Shown here: positions 4,587 through 51,956 of the stretch, piece after piece | How positions within the stretch are numbered: position 1 is the stretch's first letter | How the letters are laid out: each line of letters opens with the position of its first letter | Assembly: GCA_041500405.1 (NCBI GenBank) | Contig: JBGQMB010000002.1 | Span: forward strand, 1 to 51,956 | DNA length: 51,956 bases | Direction of reading: 5' to 3' | Source: Candidatus Micrarchaeia archaeon | GTDB taxonomy: Archaea > Micrarchaeota > Micrarchaeia > Anstonellales > J096 | The notes under the pieces: model-generated | The model's input: only the letters and a program-made list of their open reading frames with translations | The model's database searches: none | What the model was told of the DNA's origin: nothing | Program-made: the position numbers and the translations under genes

Positions 4587-4665
4587 CTATCAAAAGATTT
4601 AAAAAGGCCCTCTCGGAGATGGGATTTGGTCCTCCTCGTGGAGGATACAAACTAGAGGTGAAAAA

Positions 4666-19885: not shown

Positions 19886-19940
19886 TTCATTCTCAGGCGT
19901 TTCCAAATGTTTTTATACATAATCCGGCATAAGTTAGACT

Positions 19941-20810: not shown

Positions 20811-20876
20811 ACGCATATGAAAGAGAAGCATCAGGATTAAAAACAGTTGCCAATAATAGGCGAATGGGGTTTTGAT

Positions 20877-30931: not shown

Positions 30932-33373
30932 ATGGTCATTATGGAGCAACTGCTGCTTGAACCCATAGAAAAGAGCCTTAAGGATGCATACCTGGCTTAC
31001 GCCATGAGCGTGATAGTCTCAAGGGCTATTCCGGACGTGAGGGACGGCCTAAAGCCCGTCCACAGGAGGATATTGTATGCCATGAACGAGCTGGGCATGG
31101 CAAGCAACAAGCCGTTCAAGAAATCCGCAAGGATTGTGGGAGAGGTTTTGGGAAAATACCACCCGCACGGGGACGTTGCCATTTACGATTCGTTGGTCAG
31201 GATGGCGCAGCCATTCTCATTGAGATACCCTTTGGTGAACGGGCAGGGAAACTTCGGCAGCGTTGACGGGGACCCGCCTGCGGCAATGAGATACACGGAG
31301 GCCAGGATGGGGAGGATGGCAGAGGAAATGCTTGCCGACCTTGACTCCGAAACTGTTGACTTCATGCCTAATTTTGACGACACGCTCAAGGAGCCGATTG
31401 TGCTTCCGTCAAGGGTGCCTAACCTGGTGCTCAACGGAACGGCCGGAATCGCGGTCGGCATGGCGTCCAACATACCGCCCCACAACCTGAACGAGGTCGT
31501 TGACGGCCTTTTGCAGATGATAGAAGGCAAGGGCGAGAATGAGATATGCGAAACGATAAAGGGGCCGGACTTCCCGACCGGCGGAATAATAATAGGCAGG
31601 GATGAGGTTGAAAGGGCGAAGAGGGAGGGCAGGGGCATTATCCAGGTAAGGGGAAGGGCGACGACAGAAGACGACAAGATACTGATAACGGAACTGCCTT
31701 ACCAGACCAACAAGGCAAAGCTCATTGAGGAGATAGCGGAAAAGGTCAAGGACGGTATTATTGAGGGCATCGCGGACATCAACGACAGGAGCGACAAGGA
31801 CGGCCTAACTGTGGAGATAAGGGTCAAGAAGGGCCACAACCCGGAAATCGTGCTCAACAAGCTTTACGAGCACAGCGCGCTCCAGTCAAGCTTCGGCATA
31901 ATAAACATAGCCCTTGTTGAGGGAAGGCCGAAAGTGCTCACGCTGTACGAAATGCTGAATGCGTTTTTGAAATTCAGGGAAGAGGTTGTCAAAAGAAGGA
32001 CCTCGTTCCTGCTAAGGAAGGCGGAGGAAAGGGACCATATAGTCATAGGCCTGCTGAAGGCGCTTGACAGGATAGACGCGGTCATTGAGATAGCAAAAAA
32101 ATCCAAGGACCAGATGGAGGCGCAGGGCAAATTGATAAGCGCGCTCGGCATAAGCGAAAGGCAGGCAAAGTCCATACTTGAGATGAAAATACAGACGCTA
32201 ACCGGGCTTGAGACTGACAAGCTGAAGAAGGAGCATAACGGGCTCCTTGTCAGCATAACAGATTACAATGAAATACTTTCAAACAGGCAGAAGCTGATGT
32301 CGCTCATAAAGAAGGAGCTTGAGGAGATAAGGCAGAAATACGGGGACCAAAGAAGGACGGAGATAAGGGAAGGCGAAGGCGAAATAGACTACGAAAGCAT
32401 GATACAGGACAACGATGTCGTCATAACGATGTCCAAAAAAGGATACCTCAAGAGAATCCTGCTCACGGAGTTCAAGTCCCAGAGAAGGGGCGGAAAGGGG
32501 GTCAGGATATCCGGGGGCGAGGAGGAGATGGAGGACACGATAGTGACGACAAACAAGACCACGATGCTGGTTTTCTCGGACAAGGGCATCGCCAGGTGGA
32601 TAAAGGCTTACAACGTCCCGAAGGCGGAAAGGTACTCGAAGGGGACGCACATTGCCAACATAATACCGCTTGAGCAGGGCGAAAGCATCGTTTCAATCCT
32701 TCCTGTCAGCAGCCTTGAGAAAGGGCACTTGGTTTTCCTCACGCGCAAGGGGACTATAAAGAAGGTTGAGATGTCCAGCTTCTCGAACCCCAGAAAGGGC
32801 GGAATCATCGCAATAAAGCTTCCGGAGCATGACGCGCTGCTTGAAGTCAAAAGCATGGAAGGCGAGGGCGACGTGATGGTGGCGACGCGGAACGGATACG
32901 CGATAAGGTTCCAGTCCAGCGACATGAGGGAGATTGGAAGGGCGGCTTACGGCGTAAGGGGCATAAGGCTCAGGGAAAAGGACGAGGTCATCGGCATAGA
33001 GGTCGTAAAGAAGCCGTTCATGGTCATCGTCTCCGAAAACGGGTTCGGCAAGATAATAGACGTTTCGGAATTCAGGGCCCAGCACAGGGGCGGAATGGGC
33101 GTAATAGGCATGAAGGTCAATGAGAAGACCGGAAGCGCGATGGCGCTGCGTTCGGCTGAAAAGGAAAACACCATATTCCTTGTGTCGTCCAAGGGCAAGA
33201 GCATAGCCAGCAAGATATCCGAGATAAGGGAAGTGTCGCGGTATGCGAGCGGCGTCAGGCTCATGGACTTGGAGGACGGCGACAAGGTCGTTTCCGCGTC
33301 CGTCATAGTGTCGGGCCTCGACATCGGCGAGCCTGAAGCGGAGCCTGCAGGCCAGCAGGGACAAGGATTATAA
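30932..33373 (+). CDS. gyrA: DNA gyrase subunit A
   Basis: [36 protein letters not shown], the active-site region AAMRYTEAR, and C-terminal beta-pinwheel repeats. 813 aa. No gyrB is adjacent. Confidence 0.93.
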
Positions 33374-33492: not shown

Positions 33493-35001
33493 TCAGCCGC
33501 GGCTGATGCTTACCACTGCGCTGGCCGTGCTGAATCCGCTCATGTCATATATGAAGCTCGTTTCGCTGACAGAGATGCGCGCGTCCGTTGAATCGTCCAC
33601 GCTGACCAGTTTAGAGCCGCCCGGCGCAACCATGACATTGGACACGAAGCTGCCGTCCTCGGCATAGACCGCAAGGATCGCCTCGTGCGGAACATCCATC
33701 GCCATATCAGAGAGGCACGCCTTTGCGAACCCGGCGTCAACGCACTCGTCAAATCCCAATGTCGCTGTCGCAGTCCTGCTTGTCAGCTCTGTTTCTGATA
33801 TCGAGGCCAGGGCCCAGCACAGCGTGCCGTTTATCACGGTCTTGTAAACATGGACGGAGATCGCCTTTGCCCCGTCGTCAATCTCCGCGGTCTCGTATGA
33901 GCCCGGCTTCACCATGATGTTGGTCCTGTCGCGCTCGTCGTCCCTGTTCATGACCTCGAATATGGCCTCATACGGCCTTGAGGCCGCAACGTCCTCGAGC
34001 GATATTCTTCCGTGTTGGGTAAACCTGCTGTCTCCGCAGAACATAAGCAGTGCATTGTAGTCTGCATTGATTGACTTTATTGAGGCTATCGCCCATTCCG
34101 AAGTGTTGGAGCTCACAATCTGCGAAACCAGGATTGAAACTGCCTTGCCGTTGCCCACGTTTATGGTTATGGAGTCGCCTGCATAGGCGGGCGATGAGTA
34201 AATCAGCCTGTCCTGCGAGTCATATGTATGAAATATTGCATGGTATGGGTCGCCGTGGTCTATCCTGTCAAGGCACACTGTGGTGAATTCCAGCTCAACG
34301 CAGTCCCCTGCGTACATCCTGCCGTCAGAGATAGTCGGGCCCGCATCCACATTGGAGTTGGTTACGTATACGACGGCCTGGACATCCGTCCCGTTTATCG
34401 CCGTCTCATACACCTTGACATAGATGGCCCTTCCGTTGCCAAGCGATACTGTCTTGTCCGAACCGAACGTCGGCTCCACCATGATTGTGGAAACCTTCCT
34501 GTTGTTCGAGCCGTATACGCCCAATATGGCCTCGTTTGGATATTCGACAGCGACGTCCTCAAGGCAGACCCTGCCGTACGAAACCGCAAGGCAGTCCCCA
34601 TAATGCAGGAGCCCGCCGCTTGAGTTTGTGCCTGTGATTGTCCTCCTTTCTCTCCCGGAGCCCCCGCCGCGGTCTCCTGTGGACGAGCTTGACGACGCAT
34701 TCGTTGCGTTTGAAACAGTTGTTTTGTTTGTCGCGTTGCCTGAAATGCTTGTTGTATTGGTTGTTATGTTGGCAGGGACCGTGTCGTTTGAAGCGCTGAG
34801 ATTTGACAATGTTCCGTTGTTTTCGGCAGAAACGTTCGTGTCGTTCATCTCAATCGTTATGACCGAGATGTTCGCGGTCACGTTCTGCGCTGTCTCATCA
34901 GTTGCCATTTCAGACATCGTGATGTAGCCGCCCGCCCCCAAAAGGAGCAGGACTCCTGCGACAAGCACCGAAGCCATCACTTCATTTCTCATGCCAAACA
35001 C
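33493..35001 (-). CDS. Surface protein with an N-terminal anchor, a sequon-dense linker and four tandem ~85-aa repeats
   Basis: TM VLVAGVLLLLGAGGY, an N-x-S/T-rich tract, then four repeats; see findings. Confidence 0.65.
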   Translation of the reverse strand: MFGMRNEVMASVLVAGVLLLLGAGGYITMSEMATDETAQNVTANISVITIEMNDTNVSAENNGTLSNLSASNDTVPANITTNTTSISGNATNKTTVSNATNASSSSSTGDRGGGSGRERRTITGTNSSGGLLHYGDCLAVSYGRVCLEDVAVEYPNEAILGVYGSNNRKVSTIMVEPTFGSDKTVSLGNGRAIYVKVYETAINGTDVQAVVYVTNSNVDAGPTISDGRMYAGDCVELEFTTVCLDRIDHGDPYHAIFHTYDSQDRLIYSSPAYAGDSITINVGNGKAVSILVSQIVSSNTSEWAIASIKSINADYNALLMFCGDSRFTQHGRISLEDVAASRPYEAIFEVMNRDDERDRTNIMVKPGSYETAEIDDGAKAISVHVYKTVINGTLCWALASISETELTSRTATATLGFDECVDAGFAKACLSDMAMDVPHEAILAVYAEDGSFVSNVMVAPGGSKLVSVDDSTDARISVSETSFIYDMSGFSTASAVVSISRG

Positions 35002-35015: not shown

Positions 35016-36476
35016 TCAGCGCATTGCGCGCTGGCCAAGGGCGTGCATGCCTTCAACAGATATCACGTACTTCCCTGTGGCCAAACCTATCCTGGAAAGG
35101 TCCACTATCGCCCTGCTTCCGTTGCACGGAAGGGACGCGACAAGCCTTCCCTGGATGTTGTACACGCTGACCGTGTGCGCGCCCGGCTTTGCAAACACGA
35201 GGCTGTACCTGCCCTGCGAAAGCGGGATTATCCTGTCCATCTGCGTCGCGGCAATCCCGCCTCTCGGCTTGACAGACACGGGCTCCTCGCCCTCTGTGTT
35301 GACTGTTGCATACGCCGAGCCCCTGCCTATGGCAAGCTCCATCACAGTGAACTTTATCGTCCTGCCGGAGCTGCCGAGGAATGTGATTCTCTGGCCAACA
35401 ACAGCCTCAACCGTGTCCCCGTTTATTTCAAAGACTGCGACCGAGTCGTGCGCGCCAATGAGCCTCATCGTGCCTATTGCAGAGTCCACGACTGTTTGGC
35501 CAAGCGCGAAAACCGAGGCGTTCTGGATTCTTTCTATGACAAGGTCCACGGACACAGAGTCGCCAACCTGCGTCGCGCTCTTCGCTGTTATTGATATGCC
35601 TGTGTTCGTTGAAGTGTCTATAATTGACACTGGCTTGTTGATTTCCAGGGCCTGGGCAAGGCTCCTGTCTCCAGTCCGCACTGTTGCAAGAATGACATCC
35701 CTTGTGCCTGTTGAATCGGTTATCTGGCTTAGGCTGTCGATGGATATCCTGTATCCATACATGTTGACAGGCGGCATTTCGCTGTTGATTATCTGCACCG
35801 TGCTTATCTGCGAAACCTGAAGCTCGATAGAGGACAGCGCCGGGTTTGTCTCCGCAGCCCTTATGAGTATTGCAGTTCCGGGAACCGTGTCCAGCAGAAC
35901 AGACTTTGATTCCCCGGCGCCCAGCTCTATTATGGACGTTCCCCTCGCGGTCCGCACAGAAAGTATTGCGCTGTAGCTCCCGTTCAGATTTTGGACATTG
36001 GAGAAGTCAAGCGCCGTTATCGTGGCGCCGAGCGTATCCTTTGTCTGTCCCTGCGTGAGCCTGAATGTCGTGTCCGGGCCGGTTATTGCGGCCGTGTCGA
36101 ACGTGAACCAGGTGCTCCTGGCTCCGACCGTTGCCTTTACGAATATGATATTGGTGTTGTCGATTATTGTCGAGTCGCCTTCCCTCATCGACATCGCAGT
36201 GTCAGGTCCTGCGCTTGGATTGATGTTGAGAAGCACGCCGTATTTTCCGGACTCCCTTGCAAGCAGCGAATCGGGGCTTACTATAGTCCCTTTGCTTGTC
36301 GTGAAGGCCTGGCCCTTCTGCAGAAGAAGCTCTGTAGCCGTCGCAACAAATGCTGTGGATAACACTGTTAAGGCGGCTGCCCTGAAATAATGAAGCGCCC
36401 TTTTCGACGCTGTTTTGAGCGATTTGCTAACCGCAGGCCTGCTGCCTGCAACGATAGATTCATTTAACCCTGCCAT
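35016..36476 (-). CDS. Surface protein with a C-terminal T9SS-type (Por_Secre_tail / FlgD-Ig-like) domain
   Basis: N-terminal signal-anchor AAALTVLSTAFVATA. The C-terminal YSLVFAKPGAHTVSVYNIQGRLVASLPCNGSRAIVDLSRIGLATGKYVISVEG resembles the bacterial T9SS C-terminal sorting domain. Confidence 0.6.
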   Translation of the reverse strand: MAGLNESIVAGSRPAVSKSLKTASKRALHYFRAAALTVLSTAFVATATELLLQKGQAFTTSKGTIVSPDSLLARESGKYGVLLNINPSAGPDTAMSMREGDSTIIDNTNIIFVKATVGARSTWFTFDTAAITGPDTTFRLTQGQTKDTLGATITALDFSNVQNLNGSYSAILSVRTARGTSIIELGAGESKSVLLDTVPGTAILIRAAETNPALSSIELQVSQISTVQIINSEMPPVNMYGYRISIDSLSQITDSTGTRDVILATVRTGDRSLAQALEINKPVSIIDTSTNTGISITAKSATQVGDSVSVDLVIERIQNASVFALGQTVVDSAIGTMRLIGAHDSVAVFEINGDTVEAVVGQRITFLGSSGRTIKFTVMELAIGRGSAYATVNTEGEEPVSVKPRGGIAATQMDRIIPLSQGRYSLVFAKPGAHTVSVYNIQGRLVASLPCNGSRAIVDLSRIGLATGKYVISVEGMHALGQRAMR

Positions 36477-41638: not shown

Positions 41639-42247
41639 ATGATAATACTTGACAGCCCGAGGCTGGAGGTCAGGGGAAACTTCGCCTTTGTCGACGGGAA
41701 GCTTGTCAAGGGGATAATGCACTACAGCATATCCGATGTCTGGGGCAGCTACATTGAGGAAGCAAAAGGCATAAGCAGGCCCGCCTATTCGGTCACAACA
41801 ATACAATACAACTCAAGGAACTTCGACATTTTCGTGATTCCGTACAAGGAGGTCGGCCCATATTATACCAAGACAATCCCGCACAGGGCGAACTACTCCG
41901 AATATTACCAGGTGCTTTGGGGAAACCCGCTTTTCGAGGTCTGGAAGGACAATGAGGAGGACGGGACCGTTTCCGTGCGAAAAGGGGCAAAAAGACCGAT
42001 AAGCACGATAATGGTGAATAGCAAGGAGCGCATGACCATGTTCAACCAGGGCCACGAGACCGCCGTTGTCCTTGGCTACACGTCCGGCAACCGCGAGGAC
42101 CGCAGCGCGAAGGAGCCGATAATGATGGGGCCCAATGCCATTGAGATGAACTCGGCAACGCTGATGAAAAAGCAGGAAAGCCTTGAGAACGAGAACCTCA
42201 ACCTCCTGGCGCTTCTGCAAAAGGCGTGCAAAAACCTTCTCCGGTAA
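41639..42247 (+). CDS. Hypothetical protein (beta-rich, possibly cupin-like)
   Basis: The ATG immediately follows the upstream TAG. The only weak cue is IPHRANYSEYYQVLWGNPLFEVW. Confidence 0.5.
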   Translation: MIILDSPRLEVRGNFAFVDGKLVKGIMHYSISDVWGSYIEEAKGISRPAYSVTTIQYNSRNFDIFVIPYKEVGPYYTKTIPHRANYSEYYQVLWGNPLFEVWKDNEEDGTVSVRKGAKRPISTIMVNSKERMTMFNQGHETAVVLGYTSGNREDRSAKEPIMMGPNAIEMNSATLMKKQESLENENLNLLALLQKACKNLLR

Positions 42248-42273
42248 AAGCCCATCCCAACAGCAATCGCTTG

Positions 42274-43667
42274 TGACATGATGAGTAAGAAATCCCAAGT
42301 GCTTTAGCTGTGGGATGAAAGCTAACAATATGTAGAAAAAAGCAAGGTTTTATCCAAAATGCGCCGATAAACCTCACATCTTCTTTAATGGTAAGAATAT
42401 ATCACAAACATGTTTGGCAATGAGGCCTGCAATTCTTTATAAATGCCAAAAAACCAAAGAATTAAGGGACAATAAATGAGATCTTACAAATTCAGGAGAT
42501 ATCCGAGCAAAACACAGGAAGAAAAAATGCGTGAGCACCTTTGGATAGCAAAAGAATTATGGAACAGGATGCTTGAGGCAACGATAAAAAAGTATAATTT
42601 AGAAAAGAAGTTCTATTCAAAATCAGAGCTTCAGTTCATGACCAAAAACAGCGGTCTATATTCCCAAACAGCTCAGGGGGTAGCACATAGGCTGGATAGA
42701 GCCTTGAAAGCGAAAATGCGCATGAAAAAGAAGGAAGAAAAAGGCGGCTTCCCGCGCTTCAAATCCTTTTTCAAAATGAAAAGTCTCTTTTATCCGCAAT
42801 CTGGCTTTTCTCTTGGCAAGAAACTGAAAGTAAGCCCATTTGGGGAAATAAGCATAAAGAAGCATAGAGAGATAAAAGGAAAGATCAAAACTCTCACGAT
42901 AAAGCGTATGCCGTCTGGCAAATGGTTTGCAGTTTTCTGTGCTGAACAGGAACAAAAGTCAATAAGAGAAAACAATGGAATACAGATTGGGATAGACCTC
43001 GGCTTGAAGACTTTTGCCGCTCTTTCAAATGGAATGACCATCGCTAACCCAAGGCACCTGAAAAGATATGAGAATAAGCTTGCGTCTCTCCAAAGGAAGG
43101 TTTCAAAAAGGGAAAAATGCAGCGGAAAAAGAAGGAAAGCAAACCTGAAAGTTGAACGCTTGCATGAAAAGATAGCTAACACAAGGAAGGATTTCTTGCA
43201 TAAAACGTCAACGCAATTGGTAAATAATTATTCCCTTATAGCGTTGGAGAAGCTTGCCAGCAAGAAAATGGCAGGTCAGAATTTGGGAAAGTTAATCAAT
43301 GACGCCGGATGGGGAATGTTCGCGAACATGATTCGCTACAAGGCTGAAAGTGCTGGTTGTGAAGTTGTGTTTGTGGATCCGGAGAATACTACGCAAGAGT
43401 GCAGCAGCTGCGGTCAGATAGTAAATAAAGAATTACACGAAAGAACGCATAACTGTCCGTTCTGCGGTCTTTCTGTAGATAGGGATTTGAACGCATCAAT
43501 AAACATACTCAAAAGAGCTACCGCCGGGCAGGCGGGAAGTAACGCTTCTGGAGACGGAACAAGAATTCCGTCATTGAAGGAAGAAGCCCACGCCTTTTAA
43601 GGATAGGGCTTGTCACAAAAACAACAGTTGAAGCTTAATCATGTCAAATACCACCTAAAAGATTAAG
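42274..43667 (+). mobile_element. IS200/IS605-superfamily TnpB-only element (boundaries approximate)
   Basis: A+T-rich relative to its flanks. TGACATGAT..TAAG at 42274-42289 is mirrored by CTTAATCATGTCA at 43634-43646. There are hairpins at 42292-42316 (ATCCCA...TGGGAT) and 43634-43667 (CTTAATC...GATTAAG). No tnpA is present. Confidence 0.55.
42476..43600 (+). CDS. tnpB: TnpB (IS605 OrfB family) RuvC-like, probably RNA-guided, nuclease
   Basis: 374 aa. N-terminus YKFRRYPSKTQEE. RuvC-I IGIDLGLKTFAALSNG, RuvC-II IALEKL, zinc finger CSSCGQ...HNCPFCG, RuvC-III DRDLNASINIL. Confidence 0.9.
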   Translation: MRSYKFRRYPSKTQEEKMREHLWIAKELWNRMLEATIKKYNLEKKFYSKSELQFMTKNSGLYSQTAQGVAHRLDRALKAKMRMKKKEEKGGFPRFKSFFKMKSLFYPQSGFSLGKKLKVSPFGEISIKKHREIKGKIKTLTIKRMPSGKWFAVFCAEQEQKSIRENNGIQIGIDLGLKTFAALSNGMTIANPRHLKRYENKLASLQRKVSKREKCSGKRRKANLKVERLHEKIANTRKDFLHKTSTQLVNNYSLIALEKLASKKMAGQNLGKLINDAGWGMFANMIRYKAESAGCEVVFVDPENTTQECSSCGQIVNKELHERTHNCPFCGLSVDRDLNASINILKRATAGQAGSNASGDGTRIPSLKEEAHAF

Positions 43668-44002
43668 TGGGTTTTTGATTATGTCATTGTAGGCTTTATT
43701 ATATACCCCAATCGTTCTCTGCAAAGACAGCCTCTTGTCAAACGGAATTTTCAGGATTTGCTTTATAGATATGTCATCATTGATATATCTATTTAATAAT
43801 CTTATAGTTCTAACAGACGATGTGGAAAAATTATCATCGTATGCAGAATACGGGATTAGTTATCATTTTATATGGTTTACTGGATATAATATTATTGCAA
43901 CAGAGGGTGTTTCTACTGAAACTATTAATCAATATACACAAGAACAGGAGAACTGCAATTCCTCTCCTTGTTTAAACGAGGGATCTCCTTAGAGGTGATT
44001 TT

Positions 44003-45766
44003 ATGAAGGCAAGCGAGCTGAAGCAGAAATACCTTGAGTTCTTCAGGCAGAAGGGCCATGCGATAATCGCCTCTGCGCCAATAGTCCCGGAAAACGACCC
44101 GACAGTGCTTTTTACGACCGCGGGAATGCACCCGCTTGTGCCTTATCTCATGGGCCAGCCCCATCCGCTTGGAAAAAGGCTTGTTGATGTCCAGAAATGC
44201 CTTAGGACGCAGGACATAGACGAGGTCGGCGACAACACGCATACCACATTTTTCGAGATGCTCGGCAACTGGAGCCTCGGGGATTATTTCAAGAAAGAGT
44301 CCATAGAATGGAGCTTTGAGTTCCTCACCGGCAAACAGTGGCTTGGAATCCCCAAGGAAAAACTGGCGGTGACATGCTTCGCCGGCGACAAGGACGCGCC
44401 AAGGGACAATGAGGCCGCGGAGATATGGCAAAGGCTCGGCATGCCAAAGCAAAGGATAGCGCTCCTGGCAAAGGAGGACAACTGGTGGGGGCCTGCAGGC
44501 GAAACAGGACCGTGCGGGCCTGACACGGAAATGTTTTTCTGGTCTGGCAAGGAAAAGGCGCCGGCTGTTTACGACCCAAAGGACAAAAAATGGGTTGAGA
44601 TCTGGAATAATGTTTTCATGCAGTACAGCAAGACAAAGGACGGCAGGTTCGAGCCGCTGAAGCAAAGGAACGTTGACACTGGCCTTGGCGTGGAAAGGGT
44701 GGCCATGGCGCTCCAGGGCAAGTCAAACATATTCGAGACCGAGCTTTTCGCACCTATTATAGAGAAGATTGGGAAAATAACCGGCAGGCGCATGGATGAG
44801 TCCAACAAAAAATCGTTCAGGATAATAGCTGACCACATGAGGGCGGCCGTGTTCATACTTGGGGATGAAAGGGGCGTTGTGCCAAGCAACACTGACCAGG
44901 GATACATACTCAGGAGATACATAAGAAGGGTGGTCAGGCACCTTATGCTTCTTGGGATGGGCCAAAAGGACACATCCGCAACAGTTGAAATAGCCAAAAC
45001 GATAATATCGATGTACGGCAAGGAGTATCCGCTGCTGGAACAGAAAAGGAATTTCATATCCGCGGAGCTGCAGAAGGAGCAGGACAGGTTCCAAAGGACG
45101 CTTGCGAACGGACTGAGGGAATTTGAGAGGATGTGCAAAGGCGACATAAGCGGCAAGGACGCGTTCCTGCTTTTCCAGAGCTTCGGATTTCCGATAGAGA
45201 TGACAGAGGAGATGGCAAGGGAAAAGGGCGTTAAGGTTGACTCAAAGGGATTCAAGGATGAACTGGAGAAGCACCAGGCGCTTTCAAGGGTTGGGGCGGA
45301 AATGAAATTCAAGGGCGGGCTGAGCGAGGCAAGCGAGGCCACCTCAAAGCTCCACACCGCGACCCATCTGCTGAACGAGGCGCTGAGGCAGGCTGTTTCA
45401 AAGGACATAAGGCAGAAAGGCAGCAACATAACGCCCGAAAGGCTGAGGTTTGACTTCAACTTTGACAGGAAGCTCACGCCCGAGGAGATAAAAAAGGCAG
45501 AAGAGTGGGTGAACGCAAGGATAAGGGAGAAGATGCCGGTCTCAAGGGAGGAGATGAAGCTGGAAAATGCCAAGGCTGCTGGCGCGCAGGCTGAGTTCGG
45601 GGTAAAATATCCGGAAATCGTCTCTGTTTATTCTATTGGAAAATACTCCAAGGAGATTTGCATGGGGCCGCACGTGGGCAACACGTCGGAGCTTGGAAAA
45701 TTCAGGATCGTAAAGGAGGAAAGCAGCGCGGCCGGCATACGCAGGATAAAGGCAGTGCTGGAATAA
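44003..45766 (+). CDS. alaS: Alanine--tRNA ligase, bacterial type, compact form lacking the C-Ala domain
   Basis: LKQKYLEFFRQKGHAIIASAPIVPENDPTVLFTTAGM, FFEMLGNWSLGDYFK, GPCGPDTEMF, IWNNVFMQY, and VDTGLGVERV. Editing-domain motifs HTATHLL and CMGPHV are present. The protein ends ~30 aa after the latter. GAGGTGA lies 5 nt upstream of the ATG. Confidence 0.9.
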   Translation: MKASELKQKYLEFFRQKGHAIIASAPIVPENDPTVLFTTAGMHPLVPYLMGQPHPLGKRLVDVQKCLRTQDIDEVGDNTHTTFFEMLGNWSLGDYFKKESIEWSFEFLTGKQWLGIPKEKLAVTCFAGDKDAPRDNEAAEIWQRLGMPKQRIALLAKEDNWWGPAGETGPCGPDTEMFFWSGKEKAPAVYDPKDKKWVEIWNNVFMQYSKTKDGRFEPLKQRNVDTGLGVERVAMALQGKSNIFETELFAPIIEKIGKITGRRMDESNKKSFRIIADHMRAAVFILGDERGVVPSNTDQGYILRRYIRRVVRHLMLLGMGQKDTSATVEIAKTIISMYGKEYPLLEQKRNFISAELQKEQDRFQRTLANGLREFERMCKGDISGKDAFLLFQSFGFPIEMTEEMAREKGVKVDSKGFKDELEKHQALSRVGAEMKFKGGLSEASEATSKLHTATHLLNEALRQAVSKDIRQKGSNITPERLRFDFNFDRKLTPEEIKKAEEWVNARIREKMPVSREEMKLENAKAAGAQAEFGVKYPEIVSVYSIGKYSKEICMGPHVGNTSELGKFRIVKEESSAAGIRRIKAVLE

Positions 45767-45822
45767 TCGCGTTTTCTGTTTGCAAAAGCGGTCAAACCTG
45801 ATTGTTTTATGACGGCGGCAAG

Positions 45823-45831
45823 GTATAAAAA
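45823..45831 (+). promoter_or_regulatory. A/T box upstream of the membrane-protein cluster
   Basis: GTATAAAAA is centred ~28 nt upstream of the ATG at 45855. Confidence 0.55.
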
Positions 45832-45854
45832 TGCAACGACCATAAAAGAAAGCG

Positions 45855-47153
45855 ATGCGTCCAATCCGGTTTTCACTGATAGCCATACTGCTTCTTGCCA
45901 TTTGCAATTGTGCGAACCCCCTATGGACAATAAGCGATACCCTTGCTGACAACGTGACGCATATGGCAATCATCGTAGGGCTTGGCACCTTGGTTGGCAT
46001 CGCCATAGCGGTTCTTTCGTATTATGCCGCAATCATCATGAACGATGAAAGGAACAAAGTCGGCGCGATAAGCGAGATAAAATCAACGCTCATAAACCTG
46101 TTGCTGTTTGCCTTCGTAATGGGGGCGATTGTGTCAATAGACAGGTTCTTCGGGGTGCTTGCGCTGGATCCAAGCGCGAACAACATTGCGGCTGCGATAA
46201 CAAACTTGTACGGGGAGAACATAGACTATCTCATGCCTGTGGCAAAACAGATGGTCGGGGTGTATTCAGACGCCTCGCAGGTCAGCGCAAGCTCGTCCTC
46301 CATATCCGGATATGTAGACATTTGGGCCGGCATCAGGATAACAACAAATGTCGGGAGGGTTTCAACCATAACCATACTTGAAAATCTGGCAAATGCGCTG
46401 AGCCAGGCGACCGTAACGGTTGTCTCCATATGCGGGCAGCAGGCGATGATGGCGAACATAATGGGGTATTTTGTGACTGCGTCCTGCCAGTTGCTCCTGC
46501 CATTCGGCTTCTTCCTGAGGGCGATTCCGTATGTGAGAAGGGCCGGCTCCACGCTTGTCGCGATAGGCATAACATTGACGCTGATATACCCTATTGCGCT
46601 GTTCTTTTTGGGAAGCATAATGTTCGGCGTCCAACATGCGGCAATAGATGCCACATTCAGCAACGGCTTCAATCCAGGGGAAGGCACGCTTGCCTCGACC
46701 CTCTCAATGTGGTCAGACAATATCATAGGGATGGCGATATCATACGAGATAGTCGGCAACCTGCTCATTTTCATGAACGTTTTCGTCAAGGGCATCTCTG
46801 CGATGATAGCGACCGCCCTGATCCCATTTTTTGGCTTGGGCTTCCTTCTTGGGGCCGCTTTTAAGAACATTTTCATGATAGCGAACCTCATAATGACTTA
46901 TGGGGCTACTGGCGCAATCTTCACCTGGCACCAGCTGTTGATAAACAACATCAACAGCTTCTTCCTCAACAAAGGCGGGATGGAGGCTGCGGTGGACCTG
47001 GAGTATGACATCGCGATTTTCGGAACCATAGTCAACATGACGCACATTTTGCTGATAGCCGGCGTGGTGCTGACAGTGGTTGGAAGCATAAGGTCATTGG
47101 CCATACTGCTGGGAGGGGAGTTTTTCCTATATGGGCTTCAGGAATATATTTAG
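45855..47153 (+). CDS. Polytopic membrane protein, cluster paralog P1
   Basis: 432 aa. Signal-like N-terminus IAILLLAICNC and many TM helices. Shared family block GFFLRAIPYVRRAGSTLVAIGITLTLIYPIAL. Confidence 0.75.
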   Translation: MRPIRFSLIAILLLAICNCANPLWTISDTLADNVTHMAIIVGLGTLVGIAIAVLSYYAAIIMNDERNKVGAISEIKSTLINLLLFAFVMGAIVSIDRFFGVLALDPSANNIAAAITNLYGENIDYLMPVAKQMVGVYSDASQVSASSSSISGYVDIWAGIRITTNVGRVSTITILENLANALSQATVTVVSICGQQAMMANIMGYFVTASCQLLLPFGFFLRAIPYVRRAGSTLVAIGITLTLIYPIALFFLGSIMFGVQHAAIDATFSNGFNPGEGTLASTLSMWSDNIIGMAISYEIVGNLLIFMNVFVKGISAMIATALIPFFGLGFLLGAAFKNIFMIANLIMTYGATGAIFTWHQLLINNINSFFLNKGGMEAAVDLEYDIAIFGTIVNMTHILLIAGVVLTVVGSIRSLAILLGGEFFLYGLQEYI

Positions 47154-48231
47154 GGCATTGCTTGCGATGCTTGCGGTTTCCGCGGTTTGCTCAGCCCAGG
47201 CCATAAACGAGACTGGAATAGACCTCATAACGAACAATACCATGATGAACATCGCCCAGGGCGGCGACCCCAGCAGCAGCGTAATTTACCTGCTTTTTGC
47301 CCTGGACATAGCGATACTCATCATATACACAATGTACGGATATGTGACGCAAAATGAGAAGGAGCTGATGAACGCAAAGGGCGAGTTCGGCCAGCTTCTT
47401 GTCTCAATCGCAGTCATTGTCCTTGCCTATTTCTTTTTCATAGGCGCGAGCCAGATATTCCTAAGCCAGTTCAACCAGGCAACCGGGTCATCCGCAACAA
47501 GCATGAACGAGTACAACAGCAAAACGTTTGACGCGTTCAGGCTTAGTGCCGAGAAGACCATGGGCACGGCATACAACACCATAGTCTCGTACAGGGCGGA
47601 TGCGTCCGTTCCGACGATGCTTCCAACCATATATACCAATCCCGTGACCATAGTGGCATGCGGATTAATGAGCTGGGGATATATACCCCAGCCGGTGTGG
47701 AACGTAGGCGGCTTTCTGGACTCCATGATACAGTGCGCATTCTCGTTCCAGACGCTAACCATAATGCAGGATGCTTTCAAGGGCACGTACGCTGACGTGC
47801 TGGATATGGAGATGGGCTCCATCATGTCGCCTTTGTTCAATCTCATGGTCTTCATGATACTGCTGGGAAAATTCTTCATAAACGACGCCCTGGTATACAT
47901 GTTCTTCGGGGGCGTGATATTGAGGATGACGCCATGGACAAGGAAGGCCGGCGACCTGATAATACTGGTGTCGCTTGTGGCATACATCTTCTTTCCGTTC
48001 CTTTACGCGGTGTTCCTTGCGGCCGCGCAAAGCGTGAATGTGGAAGCAGACATCTGCTCAAGGCTGGGCAATGATGCGGACCTCCCGCCATTCAATGACT
48101 GCAGCGGGCCGACCGGAATAATGACGCTGGGCAAATATGCGGTGCTGAGCAGCTTTGTTTCTTCAGTTATTCTGGGATTGAGCCTTTCAATACTCAACAA
48201 CTTCAGGAAGGTATTCGAGATGGTGGAATGA
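47131..48231 (+). CDS. Polytopic membrane protein, cluster paralog P2
   Basis: 366 aa. Signal-like MGFRNIFRALLAMLAVSAVCSAQA. Block GGVILRMTPWTRKAGDLIILVSLVAYIFFPFL. 23-nt overlap with P1. Confidence 0.72.
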   Translation: MGFRNIFRALLAMLAVSAVCSAQAINETGIDLITNNTMMNIAQGGDPSSSVIYLLFALDIAILIIYTMYGYVTQNEKELMNAKGEFGQLLVSIAVIVLAYFFFIGASQIFLSQFNQATGSSATSMNEYNSKTFDAFRLSAEKTMGTAYNTIVSYRADASVPTMLPTIYTNPVTIVACGLMSWGYIPQPVWNVGGFLDSMIQCAFSFQTLTIMQDAFKGTYADVLDMEMGSIMSPLFNLMVFMILLGKFFINDALVYMFFGGVILRMTPWTRKAGDLIILVSLVAYIFFPFLYAVFLAAAQSVNVEADICSRLGNDADLPPFNDCSGPTGIMTLGKYAVLSSFVSSVILGLSLSILNNFRKVFEMVE

Positions 48232-50105
48232 AAAGGATGCTGGCTTGCCTTGCGCTTTGCGCGCTGGTCGCAATAGCGTGCGCCAACACCCTGAACACAA
48301 GCCAGGGAATCACGAATATCGGCACAAGCGGCACGTTCGCAGGAAAGGTCGCGAACCTCTTCGTCATAAGCGGGGAGAGGTACAACTGGGTGTGGATATC
48401 GCTTGTGCTTATCGTCATTTCCATACTGATAAACGCCCTGATATACATGCTGGCAAGGACGTTCCAGATATCATACCTGGAGAGCGCATTCAAGCTTGAG
48501 CTGAGAGAGGCGGTGTTCAACATAGTGCTGATACTCCTTTTCGGGCTCTTCGCGCTTTTCCTTGATGCGCTCCTTGCCGCGCCCCTGCTGTGCGACACCC
48601 CGGTAAACTGCGTGGTGGACACGTCCGTAAGCTACATGGACGGGCTGATTGACGCGGCAAAGGACAGGGTTGTCAGCCTGGAAAAGGAGTCCCTGAAAAA
48701 GGTGTCGAGCACGAACATCGGGGGAACCGCCGGCTGGGGAGGGCTTAGCATCGGCTACGTCTACGACATGCAGGGCCTGAACAGGGTGCTTACCCTGGAG
48801 GCAGACGAGATGATAAAGCTCCAGCAGAACGCCGCCCTGACCCTTATCATAGTGAAGATATTCCTGCTATATTTCGCGTACTATATAGGGCCTATGCTCA
48901 TCGTTTTCGGAATGATGCTGAAGTGCTTCTCCATAACAAGAAGGCTCGGCTCCACTATGCTTGCCATAGGGATAGGATGCTCCATAGTGCTTCCGCTGAC
49001 CATAATAGCAATACTGGTGGCGAACGGGGCGATAAGCATACCCGGGGTGCAATACATGAAGCAGGCAGACTGCCCGGACGCATGCACGACTTCAATTGTC
49101 GCATGGAACTCAACCGGCGGGATAGACCTGAATGAGTATATGGACAAGGCGCAGGCAGACACGGCGCGTCCATGGTCAGAGAGACGGGGTATAGTGACAG
49201 GAAGCAAGCTAAGCCTTGCCATAAGCGGGCTTGGCACAGTCAATTCGTGCGAAAACCAGAGCCTGAGCATAAACGCCAGCATGATAAGCACGTACTCATC
49301 AAGCCCGATAAGCATCAACATAAACTTTGTCAGGGCAAACATCACCACGGACTGCCCGTCCAACTGCAGGAGCATACCTTATCCGTATGACATTGCGGAA
49401 TGCAGGGACGCCGAAAGGTCATGCGCTGCGCTTTATGCCGCATCAACGCCAAAAGGAGCCTGCTTCAGGAAGAATTTCGACTATTCCAACCTAAACTACA
49501 CCGTTGTTTACGACGGCCAGCCCATGAACCTCAGCCTTGCGCTGAACAAGAGCGCCTGTTTTACGGTAACCCCGCTCAACATAACCGCAAAAAACAGCCC
49601 GCTGGACTACTGCCCAAGCTCGTGCAGGCTATTCTATTCGGACGGCAGCACGGGATGCAGTGCATCAGACCCTAACTATTTCAACTGCACAGCCATTTAC
49701 CAAAAAGCAACAGGAACAACGAGTCTGGCCCAAGCCACTGCCAAGGCAAAGGGCATATACGGCAACATAACCGCCGAACTGGGAAAAACCAGTCCAAGCG
49801 CCGCGGCCATAACGGCAAACGCGAGCGTAATATCCCTGCCGATATATCCTCTCAACCATCCGGACTGCCTGAAAATCATGAAGCTGTCTGATGACCTGAA
49901 GAGCGCTCCGACATATATCGACTGCAACGGGTGCTTCAGCGAGCAGACGACAACGGCCGGGGCAAAAACGGCAGAAGGCAAGTTCATGGCATACGCGGTC
50001 ATGCTCGGCATCTTCTCCATAGCGATAACCCTTGCCGCCTCTGTGGCCCTTTCAATGGGCCTGGAAGGCGAGATGTTCATACCTGGGCTTGAGAGGCTGC
50101 GCTGA
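48228..50105 (+). CDS. Polytopic membrane protein, cluster paralog P3, with a large Cys-rich ectodomain
   Basis: 625 aa. ATGA overlap with P2. Block GMMLKCFSITRRLGSTMLAIGIGCSIVLPLTI. A ~320-aa insert has 16 Cys and many N-x-S/T sites, and a final TM helix follows. Confidence 0.75.
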   Translation: MKRMLACLALCALVAIACANTLNTSQGITNIGTSGTFAGKVANLFVISGERYNWVWISLVLIVISILINALIYMLARTFQISYLESAFKLELREAVFNIVLILLFGLFALFLDALLAAPLLCDTPVNCVVDTSVSYMDGLIDAAKDRVVSLEKESLKKVSSTNIGGTAGWGGLSIGYVYDMQGLNRVLTLEADEMIKLQQNAALTLIIVKIFLLYFAYYIGPMLIVFGMMLKCFSITRRLGSTMLAIGIGCSIVLPLTIIAILVANGAISIPGVQYMKQADCPDACTTSIVAWNSTGGIDLNEYMDKAQADTARPWSERRGIVTGSKLSLAISGLGTVNSCENQSLSINASMISTYSSSPISININFVRANITTDCPSNCRSIPYPYDIAECRDAERSCAALYAASTPKGACFRKNFDYSNLNYTVVYDGQPMNLSLALNKSACFTVTPLNITAKNSPLDYCPSSCRLFYSDGSTGCSASDPNYFNCTAIYQKATGTTSLAQATAKAKGIYGNITAELGKTSPSAAAITANASVISLPIYPLNHPDCLKIMKLSDDLKSAPTYIDCNGCFSEQTTTAGAKTAEGKFMAYAVMLGIFSIAITLAASVALSMGLEGEMFIPGLERLR

Positions 50106-51205
50106 TGCTTTCACTGTCCGAATACGTTGGCTATGCGGCCGTTGTCATAGTGATGGGCGCGATTTACACCATAATATACATGATAGCGCAGGCACTGGAA
50201 AACCAAAAGCTCCTTGCAGTCGCGAAATCCGAGATGCAGGAGGTCCTGATAGGCGGGTTCATGGTGATTTTGCTGTCTTTCATCATATTCAACGTGGGGC
50301 AGCAGCTCGGGTATTACACGATAAAGTCGTTCGTGCCGGACCTTGACGACAGGTATGCCGGCGCATCAGCGCCGATATCGAACGATTCATTTTTCTTTGA
50401 CAATGCTGACAATCTGCAGAAAGATATCATCGGCGGATACACATCTATATTCATAAGCGCGTCCAAGCTTGCCGGCGACGCGGCATCCGCGAGCTCGGCG
50501 TACATAAGCAGGGGCATAGAGGGCTCGCAGCCGCTGCCTGTTGGAATCAGTAACGGCGCATCCGGCTCCTTGACCACGCACCTTTGCAAGCCGGTCGCCA
50601 TAATAGCCGCGCTTGTCAACGAGATAGCATCCCTTGTCTCAAGGACCATAACGATAATGTCGGCGCAGGACATGCTCGTTACTGCCGCGCGGTTCCTCTA
50701 CGCGCCGTTTTTCATGCTGGGCATAATCCTGCGCTCGTTCAATGTGGTGAGGGGGATAGGGGCATTCTTCATAGGCTTCAGCATAGCCCTTTTCCTGTAT
50801 CCCATATTCCTTATACTCATGGAAGGATACACAATAGAGTATTTCAGCACGATGGGGCTGGACCTGCTGGATTCAACAAGCGTAAGCTCGCTGAACAGCA
50901 ACATAAATACCCTCGGGCACTATGGACGGTTCGGCATATTCAGCAGCGGCAGCTACTGCGACGAGAACCCGAAAGGAGACCTGCAGGATGATATGAACAG
51001 ATATAAGAACCAGCTTGATGCCGGCGTAACGATGAACGCCGGCAACAACATAGCCACAACAGGCTCGCTGATGTTCGCGATGCTGCTGTCGCAGGGCTTT
51101 GCCCTGCTGATGGTGGTTTCGCTGACCGGCGGGATAGCCAAGGTCATGGGATCAGACCTGAGCCCATTCGTAATAGGGAATATAGTAAGGATAAGTGGTA
51201 TGTGA
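50105..51205 (+). CDS. Polytopic membrane protein, cluster paralog P4
   Basis: 366 aa. TGATG overlap with P3. Block LGIILRSFNVVRGIGAFFIGFSIALFLYPIFL. Confidence 0.72.
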   Translation: MLSLSEYVGYAAVVIVMGAIYTIIYMIAQALENQKLLAVAKSEMQEVLIGGFMVILLSFIIFNVGQQLGYYTIKSFVPDLDDRYAGASAPISNDSFFFDNADNLQKDIIGGYTSIFISASKLAGDAASASSAYISRGIEGSQPLPVGISNGASGSLTTHLCKPVAIIAALVNEIASLVSRTITIMSAQDMLVTAARFLYAPFFMLGIILRSFNVVRGIGAFFIGFSIALFLYPIFLILMEGYTIEYFSTMGLDLLDSTSVSSLNSNINTLGHYGRFGIFSSGSYCDENPKGDLQDDMNRYKNQLDAGVTMNAGNNIATTGSLMFAMLLSQGFALLMVVSLTGGIAKVMGSDLSPFVIGNIVRISGM

Positions 51206-51956
51206 TGGCATATATTGAGTTCGGGATGTGCGATGCCTCTTCCGGAACGACCAACCTCATTGCCACGCTCGTCATATCCTGCGTAGCCGTGCTCATGCTT
51301 TCCGTGATATTGAGGATGGTCGGGAAGATTACCGGCAACAGGAGGATGGAGCTGTGGGGCAGCAACATGATATACGATATCATAATAACATTCATCATAG
51401 CCGGCGCCATAATTGCCCTTTATTCCGCATTCGGCTCAAGCGCTGTGGGAAGCCCATGGGTGCCGTCCGTTGCAAATGTCAGCAGCAGCGGCGTGTCCAA
51501 GGCGGTGTATTTCGACAGCTCCAAATGCGTCTTTGGCAACGCGATGTCTTTCCTTGCGTCTGCGACCAATTATACGCTGAACGTAGCGAAGCTGTCCATT
51601 TGGGCGAACGGCAACATGGAAACGCTGATAAGCGCGACAAAGACCCAGCCGACGGTGTTTATGGGCTTCGGGTATTATTCCTCGACGCTTGTGGGCCAGC
51701 CCATATACCCGTCAATAGCAAAGGCCAAAGCCATGCTGGGCTCCATAATGAGCATAGCCATAATGTCCTCCCTTACCGCGAACACCGCGCAGGTGTTCCT
51801 TATGAAGATGGTGCTAAGCCCCGCAACGAACCCCATAATGTTCTCGCTCCTGGCGTTCGCCGTGATACTGAGGCCATTGCCCGTTTTCAAGTATTTTGCA
51901 AACAGCGTCATAGCCGTGCTCATATCATTCATGCTGGTCTTCCCGCTCATGGTCAC
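51205..51956 (+). CDS. Polytopic membrane protein, cluster paralog P5 (3'-truncated by the window edge)
   Basis: Not in the supplied ORF track because it has no stop. I translated it by hand: MAYIEFGMCDASSGTTNLIATLVISCVAVLML... with no stop through 51956. TGATG overlap with P4. Block FAVILRPLPVFKYFANSVIAVLISFMLVFPLM. Confidence 0.68.
   Translation, partial: MAYIEFGMCDASSGTTNLIATLVISCVAVLMLSVILRMVGKITGNRRMELWGSNMIYDIIITFIIAGAIIALYSAFGSSAVGSPWVPSVANVSSSGVSKAVYFDSSKCVFGNAMSFLASATNYTLNVAKLSIWANGNMETLISATKTQPTVFMGFGYYSSTLVGQPIYPSIAKAKAMLGSIMSIAIMSSLTANTAQVFLMKMVLSPATNPIMFSLLAFAVILRPLPVFKYFANSVIAVLISFMLVFPLMV

Follow-up and report, generated by a model that had tools for sequence, protein, structure and literature searches.

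The window analysed here, a stretch of 51,956 nucleotides of Candidatus Micrarchaeia DNA, ends in a row of five same-strand genes that we refer to as P1 to P5 (Table 1). All five open reading frames lie where the original prediction, made from the sequence alone, had placed them, with the fifth frame still open at the window edge, and the overlaps that it had described are likewise all present: 23 nt at P1/P2, an ATGA at P2/P3, and a TGATG at both P3/P4 and P4/P5 (spacings of -23, -4, -1, and -1 nt). Junction spacing is similar in the arrays of relatives, where the 23-nt overlap of P1 and P2 recurs identically in one case (L004). Array genes are generally packed tightly and frequently overlap, and the sharing of stop and start codons suggests, by inference from the gene layout, that the encoded proteins are made in equimolar amounts.

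The A/T box previously noticed ahead of P1 is the archaeal TATA box TATAAAAA, which is unchanged in all 4 genomes compared (the window, L017, L004, and L002). Its short distance from the start codon of P1 implies a leaderless or near-leaderless operon transcript, though the transcription start itself is inferred. Further upstream, 16 of the 17 positions of a 17-nt element do not vary among four genomes with P1 proteins of only 61% to 70% identity; the element is possibly the site of a regulator, a putative assignment without functional data. The proteins encoded upstream of the array (152 aa, 202 aa, and an HTH_17 protein) were considered as pilins or membrane partners and rejected, since all three lack a hydrophobic segment at the N-terminus and appear to be soluble.

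Table 1. Genes and sequence features of the array and its upstream region, in window coordinates.
Feature	Position	Strand	Description
17-nt element TTCTGTTTGC(A/C)AAAGCG	45774-45790	+	Conserved; upstream of TATA box
TATA box TATAAAAA	45824-45831	+	Archaeal; AAAG just before; 24 nt before P1 ATG
P1	45855-47153	+	432 aa; signal-peptide-like N-terminus with conserved Cys, 5-TM core, extra long helical hairpin
P1 signature block	46506-46601	+	TM3 end, predicted cytoplasmic loop LR-x5-R-x2-G, TM4 with conserved Pro
P2	47131-48231	+	366 aa; paralog; 23 nt shared with P1
P2 block	47908-48003	+	32 residues
P3	48228-50105	+	625 aa; paralog with large ectodomain
P3 block	48909-49004	+	32 residues
P4	50105-51205	+	366 aa; paralog without signal peptide; minimal core
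P4 block	50717-50812	+	32 residues
P5	51205-51956	+	Paralog; cut off by window edge
P5 block	51856-51951	+	32 residues

All five proteins show several hydrophobic segments, in line with the multi-pass membrane character proposed for them. The signal-peptide-like segment ending in Cys that had been read at the start of P1, P2, and P3 holds up only in part: the Cys is kept in P1 orthologs (n = 8, 43% to 100% identity) but is not conserved in P2 and P3. The large ectodomain of P3 comprises 325 aa between TM4 and the last TM helix (about 49020-49994) and contains CPxxCR motifs, 16 Cys, and 11 N-x-S/T sequons; in other lineages, such as that of P0023, it exceeds 1,000 aa. P5 reaches at least 364 aa in locus L001, whose contig is identical to that of the window, and 376 to 387 aa in relatives, where it is followed by a sixth paralog, P6, of 327 to 330 aa.

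The paralogy of these proteins, which had been proposed from a block shared by all five, is real. Pairwise BLASTP among P1 to P5 gives matches that are weak yet in register, and profile-profile alignment of the ortholog families with hhalign joins them with probabilities of 93% to 98.5% (E = 3e-7 to 2e-15 over about 200 columns), compared to no more than 0.7% (E = 0.09 to 0.8) for column-reversed control profiles. The 32-residue blocks as first quoted are present verbatim, only a few nucleotides off the positions originally given. Loss of the block in a real multiple alignment would have refuted the original prediction; it survives these controlled tests and is retained in alignments of 37, 124, and 128 sequences, with residues G218, R222, R228, G231, and P246 of the P1 block conserved at 91% to 98% across 124 diverse superfamily members. 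Outside the block, a final TM helix carrying an "LGG" tail is also common to the paralogs. The diverse alignment A5 varied too much to be scanned for patterns.

Hydropathy, charge bias, the distribution of sequons and Cys residues, and AlphaFold secondary structure together predict a five-helix TM core in N-out/C-in orientation. The AlphaFold model of P1, built on 124 sequences, reaches a pLDDT of 89.9 and a pTM of 0.79 and consists of helices of 34 to 50 residues plus a beta hairpin. From these helix lengths alone, we read the TM helices as running on into very long helices that would rise outside the cell as a helical stalk with a height of a few nm. Searches of the P1 model against the PDB and BFVD with Foldseek returned nothing at an E value of 1e-3 or better; as a model, the fold of P1 is confidently predicted and without significant match in the PDB. 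The corresponding run for P4 had a shallow alignment (25 sequences) and a pLDDT of only 62, at which its Foldseek list is meaningless, and it was replaced by P1 with its 124 sequences. Conservation is concentrated on the inner side: of the 30 positions with the strongest conservation, 22 fall in predicted cytoplasmic loops and the tail or in TM3/TM4, and the residues conserved in all six paralogs (a Glu in loop 1, LR-x5-R-x2-G in loop 2, the Pro of TM4, and the LGG tail) are mostly found at the predicted cytoplasmic face, with a variable outside. No conserved charged or polar residue that could mark a conduction path was seen inside the TM segments, which counts against the port proposed below.

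The claim that the array is undescribed holds: a confident profile match to a well-characterised family of mundane function would have refuted the original prediction, and no characterised family was matched in Pfam, NCBIfam, PHROGs, PDB sequences, or Foldseek searches. Scans of P1 to P5 against Pfam and NCBIfam (to E = 10) and against PHROGs (to E = 1) gave no meaningful match, and the noise in these scans included, for example, a fimbrial usher at 11 bits. The precomputed Pfam tables of the loci hold no assignment for any array gene, and Pfam did not match P6, four giant proteins encoded next to arrays (see below), or P0023. PDB sequences yielded nothing for the 124-sequence profile, two of the giant proteins, and P3, with TolQ (E = 0.25) and a monobody (E = 0.03) as noise. 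No description of this gene cluster was found in the literature, and both the family and the operon are new, with their function open. Alignment-based searches found 15 and 9 close relatives only (A2 and A4, respectively) because of their word prefilter, while an exhaustive HMMER search showed the size of the superfamily: 2,209 representative clusters. Every named member among the best 150 of these 2,209 is a "hypothetical protein" assigned to Micrarchaeota, Micrarchaeia, or Anstonellales, with the exception of one locus with a record titled Methanobacteriota. Judged by these best 150 matches, the superfamily appears restricted to Micrarchaeota, which is not proven.

Comparison across relatives corrects the count of the original prediction: its paralogous genes are real, but the array has six members instead of five and is usually followed by a giant lipoprotein gene. 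Every array contained in full within one contig has exactly six members, contiguous and on the same strand (9/9; L002, L004, L008, L010, L011, L012, L015, L016, and L017), and the gene layout of L019 looks the same. Two diverged array types exist, type I and type II, and in both the six members come in fixed order. Gene order and one-to-one orthology persist at 20% to 25% identity, where the best cross-genome match of each protein is still its own counterpart, so that the six roles must be old and non-redundant; orthologs between genomes are closer than paralogs within one genome. A lack of co-conservation in relatives would have spoken against the original prediction, and what we find is that order and number are kept across deeply diverged Micrarchaeota. 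The flanks consist of chromosomal housekeeping genes that differ from locus to locus and include AlaRS, LeuRS, MCM, and GluRS. No conserved ATPase was found in the 10-kb flanks, where a single unrelated AAA+ protein occurs in L008, and the flanks showed no connection with Sec, YidC, or genes for glycosylation. A scan of IMG/VR found no locus with the array, and a metagenome scan found 2 loci only. A mobile or viral origin was rejected on the basis of the conserved chromosomal synteny and the lack of an IMG/VR match.

The giant Cys-rich lipobox protein that usually follows P6 in relatives (P7; outside the window) is encoded 3' of P6 with homologous N-terminal regions at nine loci (L002, L004, L008, L010, L011, L014, L015, L017, and L019). 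It measures at least 1,227 to 1,758 aa with a Cys content of 2.8% to 5.0%, and its signal peptide is predicted to end in a lipobox-like x-x-G-C at all nine loci (LFSGC, LFPGC, FFAGC, FSAGC, VLPGC, FMSGC, FVAGC, or LQGC), without data on lipidation. Several of these variants fit the archaeal consensus [L/V/I][A/S/T/V/I][G/A/S]C exactly (PMC12462473), and the others are near-matches with P or Q at position -2 or F at -3. The giant proteins of L004 show RCC1-like repeats by eye that Pfam does not recognise. We considered P7 as the known Micrarchaeota S-layer protein and rejected this on size and Cys content from the published description, given that SLP_Mh is a 101 kDa protein with S-layer domains and almost no sulfur amino acids (bioRxiv 10.1101/2021.04.28.441871). 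Type II arrays (L012 and L016) have six members, no giant partner, and short ectodomains only, and the core function of the array can therefore not depend on the lipoprotein.

Our main interpretation, to which we assign a probability of roughly 0.45, is that P1 to P6, together with P7 where present, form a hetero-hexameric envelope base for host contact or exchange, with both assembly and function inferred. The six subunits would come together in a 1:1:1:1:1:1 ratio as a ring of pseudo-sixfold symmetry within the cytoplasmic membrane, held together by equivalent conserved contacts at the cytoplasmic face, and the extracellular collar of this ring would bear the glycosylated, disulfide-rich ectodomain of P3 and the lipoprotein P7. 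The whole may serve as an ATPase-independent base or port at the cell surface, through which organisms without most transporters and complete lipid synthesis would contact the host and passively exchange or take up its material. The hetero-oligomer reading of the original prediction gains support from the six members in 9/9 complete arrays and their positional orthology, with physical assembly remaining an inference; ring geometry and stoichiometry are deduced from gene number and coupling alone, without an experiment or a multimer model. The host-contact role is inferred from the biology of the lineage, as for Ca. Micrarchaeum harzensis with its few transporters, incomplete lipid and nucleotide pathways, and dependence on cell contact (PMC8975820), and has no direct link to the array.

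A more specific idea is a long shot, namely that the ring of six paralogs, together with its P3 ectodomain and the lipoprotein, is the symbiont-side port of a junction between archaeal species, through which lipids, nucleotides, and amino acids would enter the Micrarchaeon, perhaps the docking barrel of Microcaldus ARM-1. Cryo-ET of this organism, which belongs to the same NCBI phylum (Microcaldota), revealed an unidentified 21-nm barrel-shaped docking platform under the S-layer where host nanotubes enter, and its composition was explicitly left open (PMC11329633). Micrarchaeota and other DPANN archaea live attached to hosts and are without most transporters and complete pathways for lipids and nucleotides (PMC8975820), and the proteins of their contact and exchange structures are unknown; the superfamily offers concrete candidates for proteome searches, hetero-hexamer modelling, and fitting into subtomogram averages. 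Should the host-contact idea fail, archaeal cell biology would still gain something new in a conserved hetero-hexameric membrane complex with an unknown fold.

It is possible, but we consider it unlikely, that the array is a housekeeping scaffold of the envelope without direct role in host exchange, for example as an anchor of S-layer or pseudo-periplasmic proteins or as an export or insertion platform for giant Cys-rich surface proteins. Its setting amid housekeeping genes and its occurrence across the phylum would suit such a scaffold, as would the giant lipoprotein that always follows type I arrays and needs export and anchoring, and the anchoring of the Micrarchaeota S-layer is indeed unresolved (bioRxiv 10.1101/2021.04.28.441871). 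However, the giant partner is missing from type II arrays, the described S-layer protein resembles the Cys-rich P7 in neither size nor sulfur content, and the flanks lack the export and glycosylation genes mentioned above.

Somewhat more doubtful still is lipid handling in the manner of Tweety homologs (TTYH) or prominins, in which the helical ectodomain of each subunit would take up or hand over lipids scavenged from the host. TTYH proteins match the array proteins in gross architecture (PMC8361169), TTYH2 mediates lipid transfer (PMC12328215), and the lipids of a micrarchaeon are those of its host, with its own lipid pathway incomplete (PMC8975820). Lipid genes adjoining type II arrays, GGR (L012) and CarS (L016), would also suit this reading. 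TTYH1-3 also lead the Foldseek PDB list for both models, yet all these matches are sub-threshold: TTYH1, the top PDB match of the P1 model, is weak (E = 0.02, probability 0.35, TM-score 0.14), other TTYH entries fall at E = 0.06 to 0.4 with TM-scores of up to 0.22, and across the list probabilities do not exceed 0.35 and TM-scores range from 0.12 to 0.22. Pfam gives no Tweety match even at an E value of 10, TTYH proteins are homodimers or homotetramers instead of six-paralog sets, and the lipid genes are neighbours at two loci only.

Tandem arrays of paralogous transporters are common, and no physical interaction between the array proteins has been shown, so that P1 to P6 could also be independently acting transporters or receptors of different specificities that are joined by nothing more than operon inheritance. 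We regard this as improbable, since number and order are fixed in 9/9 arrays of two diverged types, orthologs are closer across genomes than paralogs within them, the stop/start overlaps suggest equimolar synthesis, and the variable copy number that usually marks specificity families is absent. The original prediction had offered the VirB6-like arrays of Rickettsiales type IV secretion loci as an analogy, and the corresponding reading of the array as a VirB6/TrbL-like platform for type IV secretion, conjugation, or a pilus can be set aside almost entirely. In its favour are the resemblance to Rickettsiales VirB6 arrays as tandem polytopic paralogs with large extracytoplasmic regions and one noise-level Foldseek match of the low-confidence P4 model (R388 T4SS chain 8rtd_L, E = 4.6). 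Against it, Pfam gives no PF04610 match at an E value of 10, neither the 124-sequence profile nor Foldseek with the pLDDT-90 P1 model finds a T4SS chain in the PDB (including VirB6, R388 TrwI), and at no locus do the genes within 10 kb include a conserved ATPase of the VirB4, HerA, FtsK, or PilB type, a conserved pilin, or a conserved prepilin peptidase.

The hetero-hexameric envelope base that we prefer can be compared to several known systems. Tweety homologs TTYH1-3 (PF04906; PDB 7p5j and 7p54) have five TM helices, an N-out/C-in topology, and an extended helical ectodomain that is formed in part by the TM helices running on beyond the membrane and carries glycosylation and stabilising disulfides (PMC8361169); the array proteins are predicted to share these features. 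Unlike the array, these proteins are eukaryotic homo-oligomers encoded by one gene, with no six-paralog operon, no lipoprotein partner, and no similarity to the array proteins in sequence or profile. The VirB6/TrbL arrays of Rickettsiales share the tandem, diverged, polytopic paralogs with large extracytoplasmic regions, whereas the array is archaeal, has a fixed number of six members, and lacks VirB4 and VirB2 partners. LRRC8 proteins and connexins, hetero-hexameric large-pore channels that are eukaryotic and have a four-TM fold, place paralogous subunits in hexameric rings whose extracellular parts can dock onto a partner cell; without a match in sequence or fold, they contribute the functional picture of a six-subunit port only. 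Mycobacterial Mce1A-F, encoded by six paralogous genes in tandem, make up a heterohexameric needle for lipid import, in which one copy of each contributes to an extracytoplasmic helical structure of pseudo-sixfold symmetry, and the organism takes up lipids from its host. Mce proteins combine a single TM helix with a beta-barrel MCE domain and function together with YrbE permeases and an ATPase, whereas the array proteins are polytopic and all-alpha with no conserved ATPase nearby. Pfam matched neither an MCE domain (PF02470) nor any other family in them, and no YrbE/MlaE permease or MlaF-type ATPase is among their neighbours. What the two have in common is an operon of six paralogs in fixed order, and the analogy is thus limited to organisation.

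Coordinates of the array, its promoter elements, and other features of the window
Feature	Position	Strand	Description
DNA gyrase subunit A	30932-33373	+	full length; bacterial-type topoisomerase in archaeal DNA
Putative surface protein	33493-35001	-	~500 aa, N-terminal hydrophobic segment, no Pfam match
Putative surface protein	35016-36476	-	~500 aa, N-terminal hydrophobic segment, no Pfam match
Low-GC stretch	42001-44000		GC down to 0.41 versus ~0.52 in the rest of the window
TnpB	42476-43600	+	IS605/IS200-type OrfB, Cas12f-like TNB domain
Alanyl-tRNA synthetase	44003-45766	+	587 aa
17-nt element	45774-45790		TTCTGTTTGC(A/C)AAAGCG, ~34 nt upstream of the TATA box
A/T box	45824-45831		TATAAAAA, 24 nt before the P1 ATG
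P1	45855-47153	+	ORF, 432 aa
P2	47131-48231	+	ORF, 366 aa
P3	48228-50105	+	ORF, 625 aa
P3 second ectodomain	49020-49994	+	325 residues
P4	50105-51205	+	ORF, 366 aa
P5	51205 to window edge	+	frame still open, 250 codons

The boundaries originally proposed for P1 to P4 are those of the ORF list, and the P5 frame was likewise found open to the window edge, its absence from the supplied track being due to the omission of ORFs that run off the sequence end. The gene junctions (a 23-nt overlap, ATGA, TGATG, and TGATG) are as claimed, and all five quoted copies of a 32-residue block at a helix-loop-helix junction occur verbatim, at most a few nucleotides from where they had been placed. These overlapping or abutting genes lie behind a single conserved archaeal promoter: the predicted A/T box is present and identical across four related genomes, and the 17-nt element upstream of it is almost invariant although the proteins of the same genomes have diverged to 61-70% identity. 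This element may be a regulator-binding site of the operon.

The alanyl-tRNA synthetase gene directly upstream of the array holds this position in close relatives only. Its product (592-617 aa in relatives) is much shorter than typical archaeal enzymes, with catalytic and SAD domains present. The TnpB gene, located in a low-GC stretch between a conserved 202-aa gene and the synthetase gene, looks like a recent insertion because it is absent from this position in the related loci L002 (a 306-kb JGI contig) and L004 (GCA_041500865.1). Further upstream, two adjacent genes probably encode glycosylated proteins of the cell surface; N-x-S/T sequons abound in the first product, which also has apparent ~100-aa repeated modules with the motif "GDC...CL.D...".

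The array had been described as five paralogs, which is correct within the window but not for the whole, which comprises six plus a giant partner. On NCBI contig JBGOWN010000009.1 (GCA_041478675.1), which carries the same DNA, P5 reaches at least 364 aa before the contig ends. In three relatives (L002, L004, and L017), P5 has 376-387 aa and is followed by a sixth paralog with the same block (P6, 327-330 aa) and then by a giant protein, P7, that leaves the locus at no less than 2,071 aa; the sole complete copy, at locus L010, has 1,758 aa. P7 starts with a signal peptide ending in a lipobox-like x-x-G-C (LFSGC, LFPGC, FFAGC, FSAGC, VLPGC, FMSGC, FVAGC, or LQGC), contains 2.8-5.0% Cys, and is homologous from locus to locus in its N-terminal region. 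Two giant proteins of L004, encoded downstream (17559-21332, plus strand) and upstream (1-5554, minus strand) of the array, have in common a run of ~48-aa repeats (GGNAIAVSAGTDDTCYVLSDGNGKCYG) and show 46% identity across 272 aa; on visual inspection the repeats resemble RCC1 or beta-propeller blades, and Pfam does not recognize them.

Paralogy of the membrane proteins, initially inferred by eye, is well supported by profile comparisons. BLASTP among P1 to P5 gives weak matches that are yet in register (best P1-P3, E 4.5e-5 in a 2-kb database). When orthologs of each gene from related loci were assembled into six family alignments and compared pairwise with hhalign, every pair matched at 93-98.5% probability (E 3e-7 to 2e-15) over ~200 columns from the first transmembrane (TM) helix to the helix past the block, whereas in a control for hydrophobic composition, with the columns reversed in one member of each pair, all 15 pairs stayed at 0.7% or less (E 0.09-0.8). 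When all paralogs from several genomes are aligned (37 sequences), the block persists as LLxxGIxLRxxPxxRxxGxxLxAxxIxxxxxxP, together with the TM1-linker-TM2 layout noted in the original prediction and a final TM helix ending in an LGGEFFL-type tail.

From hydropathy, charge bias, and the positions of sequons and cysteines, we predict a common core that starts outside the cell, after an optional signal peptide in P1-P3. In this predicted layout, TM1 and TM2 are joined by a cytoplasmic linker of 14-23 residues, and TM2 and TM3 by a first ectodomain segment (84-132 residues). The block corresponds to a short, Arg-rich cytoplasmic loop between TM3 and TM4, which has a conserved Pro; a second ectodomain, from 36 to over 1,000 residues long, then separates TM4 from the last TM helix and its short cytoplasmic tail. 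In P3, the second ectodomain contains 11 N-x-S/T sequons and 16 Cys, consistent with its predicted extracellular location. Conserved Cys motifs of the P3 ectodomain (window; P0023; L008 12142-14814; L011 2343-4895) include CPxxCRxIPYPxDxxxCRDAExxC and a repeated CPxxCR, with many of the CPxxCR type in the 1,466-aa P0023. The length of this ectodomain varies by lineage from ~325 to over 1,000 residues, which gives it the look of a modular surface domain that evolves rapidly. AlphaFold modeled P4 only poorly from 25 sequences (pLDDT 62), and a model of P1 from a 124-sequence alignment reached pLDDT 89.9 and pTM 0.79; it contains one beta hairpin and helices 34-50 residues long. These modeled helices reach well beyond the hydrophobic segments (e.g., helix 173-222 holds TM3 at ~202-221), which we take to mean that the TM helices extend outside the cell as a helical stalk, a few nm in height and capped by a hairpin. 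Across 124 diverse members, E74, G218, R222, R228, G231, P246 (91-98%), and G420 (90%; P1 numbering) are near-invariant, and 22 of the 30 most conserved positions fall into predicted cytoplasmic loops and tail or TM3/TM4, with the outside variable.

Scanning GTDB with a single genome for each species yielded loci from Candidatus Anstonellales (L008), other Micrarchaeota (L007, L009, and L010), and one MAG labeled Methanobacteriota (L011). The expected synteny holds even in these distant genomes: the order P1 to P6 is kept in each, and the best match of every protein is its own counterpart, although identity is no higher than 20-25%. The six-fold duplication therefore predates the split of these lineages, and the copies are not interchangeable. 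Family HMMs run on all ORFs of 13 loci found exactly six contiguous same-strand members in 9 of 9 arrays fully inside a contig, no seventh within 10 kb, and no additional member elsewhere in the window. On L011 (RFJG01000075.1, titled "Methanobacteriota archaeon isolate J096"), the type I array is complete and accompanied by a lipobox giant 40% identical to P7 of L008; the title probably reflects an error in binning or naming and not an occurrence of the family outside Micrarchaeota.

Two kinds of array can be distinguished, and both occur in one MAG (locus-tag prefix KO465). In type I, orthology of P1 to P6 is clear, P3 bears a large Cys-rich ectodomain, and P7 follows the array; type II (L012 and L016) has six members with short ectodomains, no giant partner, no one-to-one match to type I, and mostly positional orthology between its two loci. 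Both type II arrays have lipid-biosynthesis genes nearby: a geranylgeranyl-reductase-like gene (8765-9928, minus strand) directly upstream in L012, and one for a CarS-like CDP-archaeol synthase (17611-18120, minus strand) 2.6 kb downstream in L016, which with only two loci may be coincidence. When a mixed-paralog profile was searched exhaustively with HMMER against 1.84 billion representative proteins, 2,209 representatives matched at E ≤1e-3 (684 at ≤1e-10), many of them P3-like with ectodomains raising the length to 1,683 aa. Named members among the best 150 of these 2,209 are all "hypothetical protein" of Candidatus Micrarchaeota, Micrarchaeia, or Anstonellales, classes that NCBI taxonomy now places in phylum Microcaldota alongside the cultured Microcaldus ARM-1. 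Distribution among named members is phylum-wide, and restriction to this phylum is likely, yet not proven from these best 150 hits.

The original observation is thus confirmed, and its reading as an envelope complex is supported and extended to six genes plus a lipoprotein in two array types. We tentatively infer, with a probability of roughly 45%, that the six-gene product is a base or port in the envelope serving contact and exchange with the host, a function favored by the few transporters, incomplete lipid and nucleotide pathways, and cell-contact dependence of cultured Micrarchaeota (PMC8975820). Six subunits made in equal amounts would assemble, one copy of each, into a pseudo-sixfold ring. 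Since all share the cytoplasmic-face motif, they would probably sit in equivalent positions, with these residues mediating contacts to neighbors or to a common cytoplasmic partner, and the variable outer collar would give each position a distinct surface; in type I, the assembly would also carry the P3 domain, glycosylated and rich in disulfides, and P7 as a giant partner anchored by lipid. Without a linked ATPase, any transport would be passive or powered by a partner encoded elsewhere. In cryo-ET of ARM-1, nanotubes of the host dock at a 21-nm barrel-shaped platform of the symbiont's envelope, its composition left open by the authors (PMC11329633). An obvious candidate is a hexameric base in the membrane, accompanied by a giant lipoprotein and conserved in the same phylum, but this is speculation and a long shot, as the array is not established in ARM-1.

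The array might instead be a housekeeping envelope scaffold or an export platform for the giant proteins, which we consider unlikely without dismissing it; its flanks are housekeeping genes that differ from locus to locus, and a giant accompanies type I arrays only. Less probable again is lipid handling as in Tweety homologs. These share the gross plan of our predicted subunits, crossing the membrane with five helices from an outside N-terminus to an inside C-terminus, and their extended ectodomain is helical and contains a lipid cavity (PMC8361169). TTYH1-3 are the best PDB matches in Foldseek, at E 0.02-0.4 and TM-score 0.12-0.22, below threshold, and we treat the likeness as an analogy. That the paralogs act independently and form no complex seems quite improbable, the number and order of the six genes being fixed; assembly itself is only inferred. 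A VirB6-like secretion platform, offered earlier as a parallel, can be set aside as highly improbable, with no profile or structural match and no VirB4/HerA/FtsK/PilB-type ATPase or pilin conserved in any locus flank. The family had been judged unassignable by eye, and profiles agree: none of the proteins matches a family in Pfam (precomputed tables give "-" for all array genes), NCBIfam, or PHROG, the 124-sequence profile finds nothing among PDB sequences, Foldseek gives no match at E ≤1e-3 in PDB or BFVD, and no description of this gene cluster was found in the literature. In family, fold, and operon architecture, the array matches no known kind of system among those that could be tested.
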